NCBI GenBank assembly: GCA_963777505.1
Contig: CAVZQN010000006.1
Span: forward strand, 256,001 to 320,000
Source of the DNA: an uncultured bacterium
GTDB taxonomy: Bacteria > Acidobacteriota > HRBIN11 > JAKEFK01
Direction: 5' to 3'
Length of the DNA: 64,000 nucleotides
The position numbers were made by a program, and so were the translations under genes. The notes under the pieces are model-generated. The model worked only from the letters and a program-made list of their open reading frames with translations, was not told where the DNA came from and searched no databases. The stretch's first letter is position 1; each line of letters begins with the position of its first letter. This document shows, piece by piece, positions 14,574 to 19,621 of the stretch.

Positions 14574-16826
14574 TCAAACAGTGGCTGCGGGTAAATCCAA
14601 TTCCGCCACGTTCTTGCGAAATTCAATGGCAGGAATTAACAAGGACGCAACCATGCCGCCTTCGGGCGCATTGTGAATCGTAAATTCGTGAGATGTACCA
14701 TACAACGAATCGAGAATTGCGCGGATCGTGGTTAATCCAACTCCTTGTCTAAGCTTATGCAGTTGCGGAAGGCCTGGTCCATTATCTCGAACTTCCATCA
14801 ATAAGCGGTCCTCATCGCGCTTGCAGACAATTTCAATCACGCCCGGACCATTCATTCGTGAAATTCCATGACGAATCGCATTTTCGACCACAGGCTGCCA
14901 AAGAAGATGAGGGACGAGGTTGTTCATAGTTTGCGGCTCAATACTCATTTTGACATGCAGTTTGTCCTGAAATCTCATGTGTTGAATTTCCAAATAACAC
15001 TTCATGTATTCCAGTTCATCTTTCAGCCTTGTTTCCTGGATCGACGTATTTTCCAGAGTTAGCTTCAAAAACTCCTTCAGTCGAAGAAGCATTTCTTCAG
15101 CCGTTTGAACATTTTCATGAAGAAGCTGAGAAATTGAATTCAGGGCATTAAACAAAAAATGTGGGTGCAGTTGCATTCGTAATACATCGATTTGAGCCTG
15201 GAATAACCCACTCTGCAACCGGATCGTATTGAGTTCTTCAGATTTATATTTCCGATAATGATCAATTGCCGCACCGGCTGCCACCATGATCCAGTAAACA
15301 AAAAAGCTAAATGCGAACCGTGACTGGGAAATATTTTGAAACAGGTATTCAAAGTAACCAACGTTAGAAGTGAAAAGCCAGAGTACAAATAGATGGATTG
15401 ATGAAATCGTAAACCAGATTGCTGTACTCAGTGCAAAATGACCTCCAAGAGATTGCAGCAACACTTTACGTTCTATTGGGAACCACCTGGCTGTTCGTAA
15501 AATCAATGGAGTGACTGCCGCCCAACAAATCCACGTGGTTGCTTGGATCATTTGAGTTGTCCAGCTTACGGGATTCGCAAGGTTGTGTGCTTCTCTACCT
15601 GCAAAATAAAATCCCATTAATGTCCAGAATGCGGGAATCCATACCCAGTTCCAAACCGAGTGAATCTTCTTTTTCTTTGGTTGCTCCTGCAATTCAAAAT
15701 ATTTGAAACAGCTTTCGATATCTTTTTCAGGTTGGCGCTGGGACTCTGGTTCAGCACAACGAACTGAAAATGTGAGCATGACGCACCCTGATTGAAAATC
15801 GGATGTTGCTCTCATGTCATAGAACTCTTGCAGGGTTGATCCAATTGTCTCAAAGACCCTGTTATATGCCTCTGGAGAAAGTGCGGAACTGTCAGGCTGA
15901 AAAGAAATTTCAAAATTCAATTTCTTATCTTCCTGTCTGGCTTGAATCTGAATCGATAGGTCTTGCAATGTTGGATTACTGGCTGAAGAAAAGCAGTCAA
16001 TAAAAATTTGCACTGGATGAAAAAGAACAAGAACCGGAACCATTTGATTGTTTAATGGAGAATCGGAGTGGACTTTGAGAGAGATGCTTCTGTTTTTCAG
16101 AATGTTTTCAAGTTCCAGGTATGTCTTAACAAACTCTAATTCCTGTTTTAATGGAACAAACAGAGTCCCTGAGTTTTCAAGGCTGAATCGAAGGAAATTT
16201 CCAAGCCGTGCTATGGCTCGTTCCGCTCTTAATGAATTTTCATGGATCAGTTTCACAATGAAATCAAGAGTTCCATATAAGAATTGCGGATTTAGTTGTT
16301 TCTTGATTTTGTCTAATTTGGTTTGTTTCAACAGCGATTCAAGCCGTGAAGACTTGAGTTCTTCATTCCCATATTTTTTTCTGTATTCAACTGCATGACA
16401 TAACACCAGAATGCCGACATAAATCAACATCCGCCACGAAATATAGTAGATGCAAAACCAATGTTCATTAAGAAGATCTTTCAACAGTGTGTTGGAGGAC
16501 TCAAATTTCCAGCTGATGGTCATTTGAGTAAGCAAATGCAAAATCGAAAATCCGAAAGAAAGTGGCAGGTGGATGGCTGCAAGCAGTTTCCATGAGATGG
16601 CTCCTGCAGGAAAGCGACGTGCCAGCTTTTGGATTGGAATTAAGAAGATCAACCACAAATACCAACCTGAAAGTTCCCAGGCGAACAATTTTGTCCATGG
16701 AAATGGATCAGTTTCGGATCCAAATCTTGAATAAGCTTGAAGCACAAAAATGACAGCAAGGACTGTTGCGATGATGAATGCTAGAGAAACACGTCTGATG
16801 TCCTGAGTCTTGAATCGGAGATGCAT
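14574..16826 (-). CDS. Internally duplicated LytS/YehU-type sensor histidine kinase (first module degenerate)
   Basis: Two TM+kinase modules: first QLNPQFLYG with no N/G boxes, second QLHPHFLFNALN...QPVVENAIRHG...DNGPG...GVGL. Confidence 0.85.
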   Translation of the reverse strand: MHLRFKTQDIRRVSLAFIIATVLAVIFVLQAYSRFGSETDPFPWTKLFAWELSGWYLWLIFLIPIQKLARRFPAGAISWKLLAAIHLPLSFGFSILHLLTQMTISWKFESSNTLLKDLLNEHWFCIYYISWRMLIYVGILVLCHAVEYRKKYGNEELKSSRLESLLKQTKLDKIKKQLNPQFLYGTLDFIVKLIHENSLRAERAIARLGNFLRFSLENSGTLFVPLKQELEFVKTYLELENILKNRSISLKVHSDSPLNNQMVPVLVLFHPVQIFIDCFSSASNPTLQDLSIQIQARQEDKKLNFEISFQPDSSALSPEAYNRVFETIGSTLQEFYDMRATSDFQSGCVMLTFSVRCAEPESQRQPEKDIESCFKYFELQEQPKKKKIHSVWNWVWIPAFWTLMGFYFAGREAHNLANPVSWTTQMIQATTWICWAAVTPLILRTARWFPIERKVLLQSLGGHFALSTAIWFTISSIHLFVLWLFTSNVGYFEYLFQNISQSRFAFSFFVYWIMVAAGAAIDHYRKYKSEELNTIRLQSGLFQAQIDVLRMQLHPHFLFNALNSISQLLHENVQTAEEMLLRLKEFLKLTLENTSIQETRLKDELEYMKCYLEIQHMRFQDKLHVKMSIEPQTMNNLVPHLLWQPVVENAIRHGISRMNGPGVIEIVCKRDEDRLLMEVRDNGPGLPQLHKLRQGVGLTTIRAILDSLYGTSHEFTIHNAPEGGMVASLLIPAIEFRKNVAELDLPAATV

Positions 16827-16971
16827 GGCAGGCCAATATCATACAAAAATATCTCGATAAAAATTTGGAAGAATACTCAAGCGGGACGATTTTGGCGTCA
16901 GAGGGAACTATTGCGACTCTGGACGGAACTCTTTAACGCAAAGTACGCCGAGTTGGATTTAAAAGAAACTA

Positions 16972-17000
16972 TTGACGCCTTCATCACACTTCACTATACT
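16972..17000 (+). promoter_or_regulatory. Sigma70 promoter of the Cys-leader operon
   Basis: TTGACG 16972-16977, 17 bp, TATACT 16995-17000. Confidence 0.8.
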
Positions 17001-17009
17001 AAAGTGCGT

Positions 17010-17093
17010 ATGAAGCTTTCCAGACAATATCAGATTTGTAGGTGCTGCTTTTATTGCATCTGTACAAGCCTGGTAGCAGGGTCTGGAGGCTGA
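17010..17093 (+). CDS. Cysteine-rich leader peptide MKLSRQYQICRCCFYCICTSLVAGSGG
   Basis: 5 Cys in codons 10-18; starts 9 nt after the -10 box with no SD; 3' end overlaps the antiterminator strand; lies upstream of a sat-like gene. Confidence 0.75.
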   Translation: MKLSRQYQICRCCFYCICTSLVAGSGG

Positions 17094-17197
17094 ACCGGCA
17101 GTCTTAACTAAAAAATCCTGACCCACTATCAGGCGATCCTGATGGTGGGTTTTTTATTTTAGCCCGCTATCGAAAATAAATCGGTAGCGGTTTTTTT
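17069..17197 (+). promoter_or_regulatory. Transcription attenuator: antiterminator plus two tandem intrinsic terminators
   Basis: 17069-17087 is complementary to 17116-17133; T1 stem 17121-17133/17138-17150 + TTTTTATTTT; T2 stem 17164-17173/17181-17190 + T7. Confidence 0.8.
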
Positions 17198-17209
17198 ATT
17201 GGAGGCACA

Positions 17210-18133
17210 ATGATCTCCCCGCATGGTGGAAACTTAGTCAATCGGATTCCCAATTCTACGGAAGTTGTTCGATGGCACGAATACGCAATATTTCAGCACA
17301 AAATTTTAATCGATGAATTTAGTGCAATGGAACTGGAATTGCTTGCAACCGGTGCATACAGTCCATTAACAGGCTTTATGCAGATTCAGGATTACAGAAG
17401 GGTTCTTCTTGAAGGCCGGTTGAGTTCAGGACTTCAGTGGACTCTTCCGGTGACGTTGTCTGTATCGCGAAGTGAAGCATCGAAGTTGAAGATCGGTGAA
17501 GACATAACGTTGCAGAATCAACAGGGCATCAATCTCGCTGTGATGCGAGTTGACGAAATTTTTCCTGCAGACAAACAGCTCGAAGTTGAAGCGCTATATA
17601 AAGGTGCAGGCCTGTCGCATCCTGGTGTTCTTCATGTTCATCAACAAGAAGAGATATTGCTTGCTGGTCCGATTATTTATCTTGGAACTCGCAAGCCGCA
17701 GGATCGATTTGCCGATTATTATCTCAGTCCTGCTGACACACGATCACATTTTCAGGAGCTTGGATGGAACAGAATTCTTGCATTCGAGCCGCGCAATCCC
17801 AGCATTCCCGGCAATCATTTGCTTTCAAACGCAGCAGATCATTATGATGGCGTGTTTCTTCATACATTGGCCGGCGATTTTTCCGGAAAAGACTTACCGG
17901 CAGATGTGAAAATCCGATGCAGTGAAATCCTTCTTCAAGAATATTATCCGCCACATAAGACTTTACTCGCTGTTTCGCCTTTGATTCTTAGAGGCGCTGG
18001 TTCGCGAGATGTTATTCATGAAGCAATCGTTAGAAAAAATTTTGGCGCAACTCACATGATTGCAGGCGGTGAACATTTGGATCTTGCTGAACAAACTGAA
18101 GTTGATTTCACGCGGCTCGTGGCAACAGCTTAA
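17210..18133 (+). CDS. Sulfate adenylyltransferase (Sat)-like protein, C-terminally truncated with degenerate catalytic motifs
   Basis: PHGGNLVNR, LLATGAYSPLTGFM, HPGV, AIVRKNFGATH; QTRNPxHxxH appears as EPRNPSIPGNH and GRDHAG as GGEHLD; only 307 aa; GGAGG SD at 17201. Confidence 0.8.
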   Translation: MISPHGGNLVNRIPNSTEVVRWHEYAIFQHKILIDEFSAMELELLATGAYSPLTGFMQIQDYRRVLLEGRLSSGLQWTLPVTLSVSRSEASKLKIGEDITLQNQQGINLAVMRVDEIFPADKQLEVEALYKGAGLSHPGVLHVHQQEEILLAGPIIYLGTRKPQDRFADYYLSPADTRSHFQELGWNRILAFEPRNPSIPGNHLLSNAADHYDGVFLHTLAGDFSGKDLPADVKIRCSEILLQEYYPPHKTLLAVSPLILRGAGSRDVIHEAIVRKNFGATHMIAGGEHLDLAEQTEVDFTRLVATA

Positions 18134-18179
18134 CGAACTGAAATCTCATAATGGAATTAGAAGTCATTTCGTTAAAACT

Positions 18180-18250
18180 GCCGCTGTGACTGAGTGGTTA
18201 AGTAGCGGTCTGCAAAACCGCGTACGTCGGTTCAATTCCGGCCAGCGGTT
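18180..18250 (+). tRNA. tRNA-Cys(GCA)
   Basis: GCCGCTG/CAGCGGT acceptor stem, GCGGT-CTGCAAA-ACCGC anticodon arm, GTCGG-TTCAATT-CCGGC T arm, U73 discriminator; no encoded CCA. Confidence 0.93.
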
Positions 18251-18458
18251 CTTACATCTTAGCGACAACACCCGCGCGTCTCAGCTAGCGCATGCCGCTT
18301 GCATTCAGCTAAGATTTGTTTGTGGCAGGAAATACTCTAATCCGTAGAAGGCTGAGTGCTGGGCAAGTCGCTAGCAAGCGGCACGATTCGCGCGTTGCCG
18401 TTGAATTCCAGCTATAGGCCGCAATGATTGGCGAACACCATAGCCATATTTAGGAACT

Positions 18459-18992
18459 ATGAAAGCTGACGACCTCGAATTCAGATCGAGCCAGAGCCCG
18501 GTCGTGCGGATTTTCTTTTTCGTTTTCGGTCTTTTGCCGCTTTTAGCGCCTTATGAACTTCTCCTTAAACCCAAGTGGAACACGTTTTTCTCTCCGTTCT
18601 TTTTTCTTGCTTTGGTTATTTCGATTGGGGCGGTCGGTGTTACTGTTTTTTTTCTCTCAGCGGCGCTCTTGGGATTAAATAAAGTTGTTCGATTCAATGC
18701 GGCGCAGCGAGAGGTGGTCTATGGTTTCGGAGCGCCGCTTCTCAAGTGGCGAAGGAAACTCGTCCCTTTTGCTCAGATCGTCGATTTACGAGTTGAGACC
18801 CAAACCTGGGATAGTGGCCCAGATACCTATGACCTTAGTCTTGATACGGTGGACGGTCACTCAATCCGGTTTGGAAAATTCGTAACCAGGGATGATGCTG
18901 AGAAGACGCGGACAGCTATACGGACGATCTTGGGGACCGGAATGCCTGTTACGGACATTTTCGATGTTGGAGCTACAAAAGAATCGGATTAA
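18459..18992 (+). CDS. Hypothetical membrane protein (2 TM plus soluble domain)
   Basis: 177-aa ORF with two hydrophobic helices; looks more GC-rich than its neighbours. Confidence 0.6.
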   Translation: MKADDLEFRSSQSPVVRIFFFVFGLLPLLAPYELLLKPKWNTFFSPFFFLALVISIGAVGVTVFFLSAALLGLNKVVRFNAAQREVVYGFGAPLLKWRRKLVPFAQIVDLRVETQTWDSGPDTYDLSLDTVDGHSIRFGKFVTRDDAEKTRTAIRTILGTGMPVTDIFDVGATKESD

Positions 18993-19001
18993 GAAGTGAG
19001 C

Positions 19002-19475
19002 TTAACGAGCCAACAAAGCGTTGATGAGATAAACGAAGAACAAGACGATTCCTAATACAACCAACCCAAAAAAACCGGCGACGACTGCAAGGAAAATCCA
19101 GTGTCGTATTGTGCTTTGTGCTGGTTGTTCTGCGTATTGACGAAACATTGTCATGTTCCGTGTATTTGCTTTAAAGATAAAATCGAAGACATCACCAACG
19201 AACGGAATCGCCCCGATTGTAATATCCAGAAGAGTATTCACAATCATTCGGAGAATGACTATCTTGGGCAGTTTGAATTGAAAGGCGCGAAATAAGAGCA
19301 TCAGACCCATCGCTCCGCTGATGATGTCGCCGGCTCCGGGAATCAGGCCGATTAATGCCTCGGCTCCAAAACGCCAATTCACACCTGGAATCTTAAAAGC
19401 ATTGTCGAGAAACCAGGCAATTTGGTCTAATTGGTTCTTGACCTTTTCTAATTCAAGGTCTTTTTGTTTGTTCAT
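19002..19475 (-). CDS. DUF4112-family membrane protein
   Basis: LDNAFKIPG..WRFG.EALIGLIPGAGD...IGAIPFVGDVFDFIFKANTRN. Confidence 0.88.
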   Translation of the reverse strand: MNKQKDLELEKVKNQLDQIAWFLDNAFKIPGVNWRFGAEALIGLIPGAGDIISGAMGLMLLFRAFQFKLPKIVILRMIVNTLLDITIGAIPFVGDVFDFIFKANTRNMTMFRQYAEQPAQSTIRHWIFLAVVAGFFGLVVLGIVLFFVYLINALLAR

Positions 19476-19621
19476 GTAGAATTACAGAATAAGACTCATC
19501 CGGGAAGCAACTCTCGCACGTAACACTATAGAGGTGGCTTCCTGCGGTAGCAATGCCCTGAGACTGTTTTCGGACAGTTTCTCCTAACGCATTCCTGCCG
19601 TTCAGAGTTAATTTATGTCTT

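Follow-up and report, generated by a model that had tools for sequence, protein, structure and literature searches.

Leader-peptide attenuation is textbook knowledge for Trp, His, Leu, Thr, Phe and Ile/Val, and its classical examples are the trp, his, leu, thr, phe and ilv operons of proteobacteria and trp of Corynebacterium and Streptomyces. In this work a locus at 16972-18251 of the window was analysed, by which the whole stretch of 64,000 nucleotides from contig CAVZQN010000006.1 of an uncultured Acidobacteriota bacterium is meant. On its forward strand a promoter, a short open reading frame (ORF) with five Cys codons, two intrinsic terminators (T1 and T2), a truncated gene related to that of ATP sulfurylase (Sat) and a tRNA-Cys gene follow each other, all at the positions given for them in an earlier note on this DNA. 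The comparison with a second species and the folding of the leader suggest that the locus is probably a classical ribosome-mediated transcription attenuator of the trp/his type, which would sense charged tRNA-Cys. It has in common with the classical attenuators the short ORF with clustered codons for the same amino acid, the 1:2, 2:3 and 3:4 pairings of leader regions, the intrinsic terminator, and a stop codon positioned so that the terminating ribosome would block region 2. It differs from them in the amino acid that would be sensed, cysteine, in the tandem terminators with a second antiterminator (4:5), in its Acidobacteriota host, in the lack of a Shine-Dalgarno (SD) sequence before the leader ORF, and in that the regulated gene encodes no recognisable biosynthetic enzyme.

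In the portions of the literature considered here, cysteine is so far covered only by the mycobacterial polycysteine ORFs, which act translationally, and by a predicted cysS motif of Rhodobacterales. The latter, uORFC-8-2 of Brewer et al. 2021, is located before cysS and was predicted to be a ribosome-mediated attenuator sensing Cys-tRNA (PMC8632094). The statement of the earlier note that no example had been described cannot be kept, since a Cys-codon upstream ORF with an intrinsic terminator is predicted there. In both predicted elements the Cys codons lie inside a stem and an intrinsic terminator follows; however, in uORFC-8-2, which is alphaproteobacterial, two Cys codons in tandem and a single terminator stand before cysS, whereas here five Cys codons and two terminators precede the truncated Sat-like gene, and in the part of that report considered no sequence relation between them was seen. 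Leader peptides with Cys runs before the cys operons of Mycobacterium, before those of P. acnes and before cbs of B. longum were described by Seliverstov et al. 2005, in the part considered without terminators (PMC1262725). According to Canestrari et al. (10.1101/834739), the mycobacterial polycysteine leaderless ORFs ('Cys ribulon') act translationally, the stalled ribosome unmasking the next ribosome binding site. These ORFs resemble the present one in being Cys-rich, short, at the 5' end of the mRNA and a stalling sensor, leaderless there and possibly here; unlike them, the present locus has two intrinsic terminators before the gene, and the SD of the gene lies outside the conserved helices. 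Two adjacent Rho-independent terminators are known from the leader-peptide attenuator of erm(K), as cited in PMC4335068; there an antibiotic-bound ribosome stalls, whereas here amino-acid shortage is proposed. As far as these sources go, Cys-codon terminator attenuators (as predictions) and leader-peptide attenuators with two terminators are thus already known in kind. The attenuators predicted in Acidobacteriota have almost no assigned functions in the part of PMC2965389 considered, and our literature search, with supplements outside its scope, yielded nothing that describes this element or the truncated Sat clade.

The cysteine-codon leader and its two terminators

The genome to which the window belongs (G000) is 95.9% complete. 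The leader DNA was compared between two diverged species, G000 and G001, the latter being the only other species of the genus and the sole close relative among the species genomes compared, and with near-identical strains represented by DNA contigs of four soil metagenome runs that belong to four studies. None of the sequencing runs listed as containing this stretch is recorded as RNA, so the strain data carry no information on transcript ends. In the second species the whole unit is kept, i.e. the promoter, the leader with five Cys codons, T1, T2 and the SD sequence GGAGG.

The sigma-70-like promoter, TTGACG-17-TATACT, is located at 16972-17000 (-35 box at 16972-16977, spacer of 17 nt, -10 box at 16995-17000). 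It matches 10 of the 12 consensus positions and is the best of the 6 promoter-like sites in 16000-19500; since shuffled sequence gives 5.2 such sites on average, the match by itself is without significance. In the second species the promoter reads TTGACT-17-TATACT, and the sequence from the -10 region through the leader ATG is identical in both species.

The leader ORF (17010-17093, ATG at 17010, stop codon at 17091-17093) encodes 27 amino acids, MKLSRQYQICRCCFYCICTSLVAGSGG, and contains exactly the C-R-C-C-F-Y-C-I-C string reported before. Its five Cys codons (17037-39, 17043-48, 17055-57 and 17061-63) fall within 9 codons. Since the ATG is located 9 nt past the end of the -10 box and no SD sequence precedes it, the ORF may be leaderless or nearly so. 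The 28-codon ORF of the second species, MKYSRQDQVHCYCICCCIRLRLVARSGD, has 5 Cys within 7 codons; the Cys positions are shifted across a 3-nt indel and only 17 of the 30 nucleotides of the Cys tract are identical, while the frame and the count of five are kept. The conservation of the Cys codons in relatives, on which the earlier note had made its proposal depend, was thus confirmed in the second species, and the divergence of the tract around them is the pattern expected if codons rather than the peptide sequence were selected. The peptide is conserved at its N- and C-terminal residues; these ends coincide with the arms of a hairpin described below, and the middle diverges.

In the whole genome of G000, 149 ATG ORFs of 8-45 amino acids with at least 4 Cys in 9 residues were found, and among these the leader is the sole one having at least 5 Cys and a strong terminator downstream. 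Three other Cys-rich small ORFs near terminators (C1:53450, C3:397135 and C4:517546) were judged by eye to lie in apparent coding regions. No second copy of the leader DNA was detected within the genome, and among 13 genomes of the class it matched only G000 and G001. Protein searches with the leader frame in two protein collections gave no relative of the peptide, though such short ORFs are seldom called as genes, and the two matches of a leader profile were both long unrelated Cys-rich proteins. When the 450 nt upstream of Sat were scanned in 37 loci, a Cys-run leader was seen in G001 only. An ORF reading MFSSSL..SSCMSCGTC, conserved in six soil loci, proved in the alignment to be an off-frame reading of a conserved upstream gene, and ORFs with scattered Cys at eight other loci were, by eye, ends of upstream genes or long GC-rich frames. 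As a separate observation, in six soil metagenome loci (L051, L052, L054, L055, L056 and L060) a conserved small gene is located directly 5' of a full-length Sat gene; by eye it encodes about 70 amino acids starting with VKHDKVTIKIPRPLY, the off-frame ORF inside it mimics a Cys leader, and its product is possibly a ribbon-helix-helix regulator.

Six leader regions, numbered 1 to 6, form two mutually exclusive sets of pairings. The hairpin H1 (1:2) extends over 17014-17091 (5' arm 17014-17045, 3' arm 17056-17091), encloses the Cys codons and has an energy of -31.6 kcal/mol (-30.7 in the second species). Terminator T1 (3:4, 17120-17160, -23.4 kcal/mol) has 14 pairs between the arms 17120-17133 and 17138-17151, followed by TTTTTTATTTT, and terminator T2 (5:6, 17164-17197, -15.5 kcal/mol, in the second species -19.1) has 10 pairs between the arms 17164-17173 and 17181-17190, followed by TTTTTTT; a U-run is present after each of them in both species. 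The alternatives are antiterminator 1 (2:3, 17068-17134), in which region 2 (17068-17076 and 17079-17083) pairs with the T1 5' arm at 17120-17134, and antiterminator 2 (4:5, 17140-17172), in which the T1 3' arm (17140-17151) pairs with the T2 5' arm (17161-17172). No U-run is present after either of these helices.

The naked leader folds far better than shuffled sequences in the two species (z -5.7 and -6.7), into H1, then T1 and T2. H1 is present in this minimum free energy (MFE) structure and would sequester region 2 if the leader were untranslated. For the folding of translated leaders the ribosome was assumed to cover -15 to +12 relative to the A site. With a ribosome placed on a Cys codon and the RNA ending at the T1 loop, the 2:3 helix was the MFE structure (-31.3 kcal/mol in G000, -35.5 kcal/mol in G001); this held for four of the five Cys codons in G000 (Cys10-16, not Cys18) and for all five in G001 (Cys11-17). 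When the stalled transcript was extended to the T2 loop, 4:5 was added to the MFE structure in both species. As computed for both species, the regulatory codons lie where a ribosome stalled on them would cover region 1 while region 2 stays accessible, and the leader stop codon lies just 3' of region 2 in both (the distance is given as 4 nt), so that a terminating ribosome would cover region 2.

The strength of the alternative pairings was compared with the 274 strong terminators of G000. The 2:3 duplex (-14.8 kcal/mol) ranks 11th among these 274. The 4:5 duplex (-16.9 kcal/mol) ranks 2nd of the 274 terminator arms, only the own arm of T1 being better, and its energy was reached by 0.67% of 2987 random terminator pairs. 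No Rfam family matched the leader at threshold; the best was the trpB motif, whose 24.7 bits fall short of its gathering score of 59 and stem from the terminator. An exact T1 pattern was found at one locus of the genome contigs scanned (L085), which is probably that of G001. A further terminator of G000, at C4:1522034-1522065, closely resembles T1 in its 5' arm (..CCCACUAUC); no other off-target site in this genome matches the leader DNA better (79% identity over 38 nt).

The two species are well diverged in the coding sequence (62.6% identity, 41.8% at third codon positions), compared to which 40 of 42 positions are identical in T1, 34 of 41 in T2 and 10 of 24 in the spacer from the leader stop to T1. 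Both T1 arms are identical in the second species, its 14 pairs being all invariant, and in T2 one one-sided change turns an A-U pair into G.U. In the two-species alignment 93.8% of the cells of the terminating state (58 pairs) and 93.9% of those of the read-through state (34 pairs) are paired; 13 of the 17 pairs of the 2:3 helix are invariant and all 12 pairs of 4:5 are kept. Stem covariation, which the earlier note had wished to see, was obtained in part: four pairs of the terminating state, all in H1, are changed on both sides, and none in the 2:3 or 4:5 helices, with two sequences available. The invariance of the 2:3 and 4:5 arms fits a double role, in which each arm would serve two partners, and is not covariation.

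The strain contigs point in the same direction. The leader contigs of the four runs cover 16943-17226, and over 909 nt only 6 substitutions and 2 single-base indels separate them from the window, whereas in six strain pieces of the coding region 66 of 1320 nt differ (3-6%). The two leader substitutions with known places are a synonymous change of Cys13 (TGC to TGT), the sole placed variant in the ORF, and a G to A change at 17162, just outside the T2 stem; the indels are in the T2 loop and in the spacer between SD and ATG. The proposal of a Cys-codon leader with mutually exclusive pairings before the Sat-like gene was thus borne out by the conservation of leader, terminators and pairings in the second species and by the near invariance of the strain leaders. 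In five further relatives (P0008, P0010, P0011, P0012 and P0018) the gene calls are over-extended, their first 10-25 residues being the translated T1 3' arm, T2, U-run and SD; they start with strings such as VGFLFCPLSKK or MAGFLFGG, comparable to the translation in the second species. Since these calls translate the terminator region, they indicate that the double terminator is retained in these relatives too.

In the mechanism that we propose from these data, transcription would start a few bases 5' of the leader ATG. With ample Cys-tRNA, the ribosome would reach the stop codon at 17091-17093 and cover region 2, and when the leader is not translated, H1 would hold region 2; in either situation T1 would form, with T2 as a backup, and transcription would stop short of the Sat-like gene. 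Under a shortage of Cys-tRNA, the ribosome would stall on the Cys codons (17037-17057), mask region 1 and free region 2, which could then pair with the T1 5' arm (2:3). The orphaned T1 3' arm would in turn pair with the T2 5' arm once this is made (4:5), so that a single stall would disarm both terminators and the polymerase would enter the Sat-like gene. The elements, their conservation and the alternative folds are the observed part of this mechanism; translation of the leader, the cysteine response, the kinetic order of folding and the role of the induced protein are what we infer from them. The same genome has, outside the window at C8:164103-165668 (L084), a leader with tandem Trp codons, MIYCSTINHYYWWYRY (..HYYWWYRY), with a TTGACA-type promoter, followed by a terminator, whose arms resemble those of T1, and by TrpE (Chorismate_bind 297 bits, and Anth_synt_I_N). 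The presence of this classic trp attenuator means that the organism uses leader-peptide attenuation.

The truncated Sat-like gene and the tRNA-Cys

The Sat-like gene (ORF 17210-18133, SD GGAGG at 17201-17205) encodes a protein of 307 amino acids, in which PUA_2 is complete, while the match to the ATP-sulfurylase profile of 212 positions covers 2-125 only. It is thus like Sat (EC 2.7.7.4; PDB 8a8d, 2gks, 1i2d) in its PUA-like N-terminal domain and in the first half of the catalytic domain; it matched 8a8d with an E-value of 6.9e-49, and its AF2 model has a mean pLDDT of 73.4. The protein of the second species (303 amino acids) is 58% identical to it. In the database, 18 clusters of proteins, 301-326 amino acids long and with 58-97% identity, make up a truncated clade, one member of which, at 75% identity, is labelled Acidobacteriota bacterium; below this clade the identity drops to 44%, to full-length Sat proteins of 382-399 amino acids.

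The residues of the active site were compared with those of full-length Sat. The HxxH element, which we take to be the nucleotidyl-transferase motif of Sat and, together with GRDHAG, to be catalytic, is lost: full-length proteins have RNPxHRAHE, whereas all 19 truncated sequences have RNPS[ILM][PS]G[NT]x. In the protein of G000 the alignment to 8a8d places IPGN on HxxH, with I and N at the two His positions. GRDHAG is lost likewise, HFIVGRDHAG of the full-length proteins being replaced by HMI[AV]xxExxx in the clade. The difference from Sat can thus be summarised as [IL]PG[NT]x in place of HxxH, loss of GRDHAG and absence of the last ~90 residues; these ~90 C-terminal residues are missing from the truncated clade, and no C-terminal Sat piece is encoded elsewhere in the genome of G000. 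The protein is probably inactive as an enzyme. The strain variants listed for the coding region are mostly synonymous (29 against 9 nonsynonymous), so the gene is under purifying selection and not a decaying pseudogene.

In the genome of G000 none of the families PAPS_reduct, NIR_SIR and APS_kinase was found, while control searches detected each of them in 11 to 14 of 14 reference genomes. For PAPS_reduct, the second species gives only a marginal match of 21 bits, against two of about 160 bits in a genome from the same taxonomic family. Two CysK/M-like genes of G000 fall slightly short of the family cut-off, and a clear CysE was not found there. From these data the genus appears to have lost sulfate reduction, and it may depend on reduced sulfur. 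A protein search in 401 genomes of the phylum found the short Sat form in G000 and G001 only. In a metagenome scan with N-terminal patterns from the two-species alignment the truncated clade was absent among the 18 loci listed; these loci, at least 18 in number, all carry full-length Sat, with 31-41% identity. The link to sulfate activation which the earlier note had seen in the fold is accordingly weakened: the gene is a homologue of that of the first sulfate-assimilation enzyme, but the two motifs and the C-terminal residues are missing, and the pathway families were not found. Since the motifs are lost, the clade is conserved and the sulfate-reduction families were not found, the protein can be regarded as a conserved Sat relic. 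That this non-catalytic relic binds a ligand or partner and serves sulfur scavenging is a guess, which we offer with low confidence.

The tRNA-Cys(GCA) gene (18180-18251, forward strand) begins 46 nt past the stop codon of the Sat-like gene. As reported before, no terminator-like site is present in between, nor was a good promoter-like site found in these 46 nt; since both are lacking, co-transcription with the Sat-like gene is possible in G000. A CATAAT box at 18147-18152, noticed by eye, could be a weak -10 box of the tRNA gene's own. The tRNA has a G1.U72 pair, U73 and a D stem of 3 bp and is a divergent second copy; the canonical tRNA-Cys gene is located on another contig, at C11:85572-85644, adjoining tRNA-Gly. 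Among the 39 tRNA genes found in G000, tRNA-Cys is the sole duplicated elongator tRNA. SepRS was not found, so the additional tRNA cannot be accounted for by a tRNA-dependent pathway to cysteine. The genome also encodes a tRNA-SeC.

At the locus of the second species no tRNA is present, a convergent DUF4112 gene comes immediately after the Sat-like gene, and the only match to the tRNA-Cys of the window in that genome (81% identity) is elsewhere. Compared with it, G000 has about 870 extra nt from the stop codon of the Sat-like gene up to the DUF4112 gene (18134-19001), which hold the tRNA-Cys gene and an ORF for a predicted membrane protein of 177 amino acids without a Pfam match (18459-18992). 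These two look like an insertion specific to the lineage of G000. The earlier view of the tRNA as a part of the unit does not survive this comparison; being a divergent second copy that is missing from the other species, the tRNA seems to be a lineage-specific extra outside the conserved device.

On the other side of the leader, a gene for a LytS-type histidine kinase of 750 amino acids (14574-16826, reverse strand) is divergent from it. The kinase has two His_kinase stretches and one HATPase_c, as if its sensor module had been duplicated internally. In the second species the upstream gene has its own terminator-like hairpin. Since the upstream gene is divergent in G000 and has a terminator-like hairpin of its own in G001, T1 and T2 cannot serve it.

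Competing explanations

Several observations weigh against the attenuator reading and have to be set beside it. The leader ATG has no SD sequence and is 9 nt from the -10 box, so leader translation is an assumption. The full-length MFE structure retains T1 and T2 whichever codon the ribosome is parked on; any switch must therefore be kinetic, as in trp, and this kinetic switch too is an assumption of the model. Not one of the 34 pairs of the 2:3 and 4:5 helices is changed on both sides, in a comparison of two diverged species only, and four of the six leader substitutions of the strain contigs have unplaced positions. A null test by the fraction of the 5' arm paired in truncated folds was not discriminating: ordinary terminators have a median of 58% of the nucleotides paired, the candidate 11 of 12 (about the 95th percentile) and the trp attenuator 3 of 11. 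T2 resembles T1 and may be its duplicate, by which the 4:5 complementarity could have arisen without selection. Finally, the regulated protein has no catalytic motifs and the families of its pathway were not found, so that the logic of a control by cysteine is not closed.

The likeness of T1 and T2 would also fit a self-standing small gene, for either a Cys-rich peptide or a small RNA of ~150-190 nt, that carries a double terminator of its own; the Sat-like gene would owe its expression to constitutive leak or to a promoter that went unrecognised, and the alternative pairings would be by-products of the likeness of the terminators. The promoter, the short ORF and the two strong terminators do make up a complete short transcription unit, and the ends of the peptide are conserved. 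However, these conserved ends are the arms of H1, and the diverged middle keeps only the number of the Cys codons; the SD of the Sat-like gene starts 4 nt after the T2 U-run, which leaves no room for a promoter, and no promoter-like site is present between them; the stop codon is placed in both species so that a terminating ribosome covers region 2; and no relative of the peptide was found in the two protein collections, a result tempered by the fact that such ORFs are seldom called. We regard this explanation as highly unlikely. Still less can be said for an RNA switch that binds a ligand, as a riboswitch does, or an RNA-binding protein and would control both terminators without translation of the short ORF. 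The excess stability of the leader over its shuffles and the compensatory changes in H1 would suit such an RNA, but no Rfam family reached its threshold, and the interior of H1 is, unlike an aptamer, the least conserved part and contains an indel, what is conserved there being the frame and the five Cys codons. This explanation is very improbable indeed.

The remaining alternatives keep the attenuator and extend it. The full model of the earlier note was a feed-forward attenuator, with the Sat-like gene and the tRNA in one operon and the sensed tRNA-Cys as part of its designed output. The 46 nt without a terminator-like or good promoter-like site in G000 and the duplication of tRNA-Cys alone among the elongator tRNAs speak for it; on the other hand, the tRNA is missing from the locus of the second species where the attenuator is fully conserved, it looks like a part of the ~870-nt insertion and may have its -10 box in CATAAT, and an extra uncharged tRNA would not relieve a shortage of cysteine. 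This model seems rather doubtful to us. A bolder possibility, which we consider unlikely, is that the chain of 2:3 and 4:5 pairings set off by one stall has two outputs in this lineage, an orphan pseudo-ATP-sulfurylase that has taken on a new function under cysteine starvation and whose PUA-like domain might act on RNA or on a sulfur ligand, and a dedicated, divergent tRNA-Cys; if true, this would be a cysteine-starvation module without a counterpart in the known sulfur regulons.

Meaning of the locus as a probable cysteine sensor

By these computational comparisons the reading of the locus as a ribosome-mediated attenuator for cysteine is well supported for two species. Measured against the parts of the earlier reports considered here, what would be new is a cysteine version of classical attenuation in a new phylum, in which two terminators are apparently relieved by two chained antiterminators, before an orphan pseudo-sulfurylase. 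The locus would thus extend terminator-based cysteine sensing to Acidobacteriota, with a compact and testable design in which one stall would relieve two terminators. It also flags the conserved truncated Sat relic as a likely cysteine-starvation protein, which would give a handle on its function.

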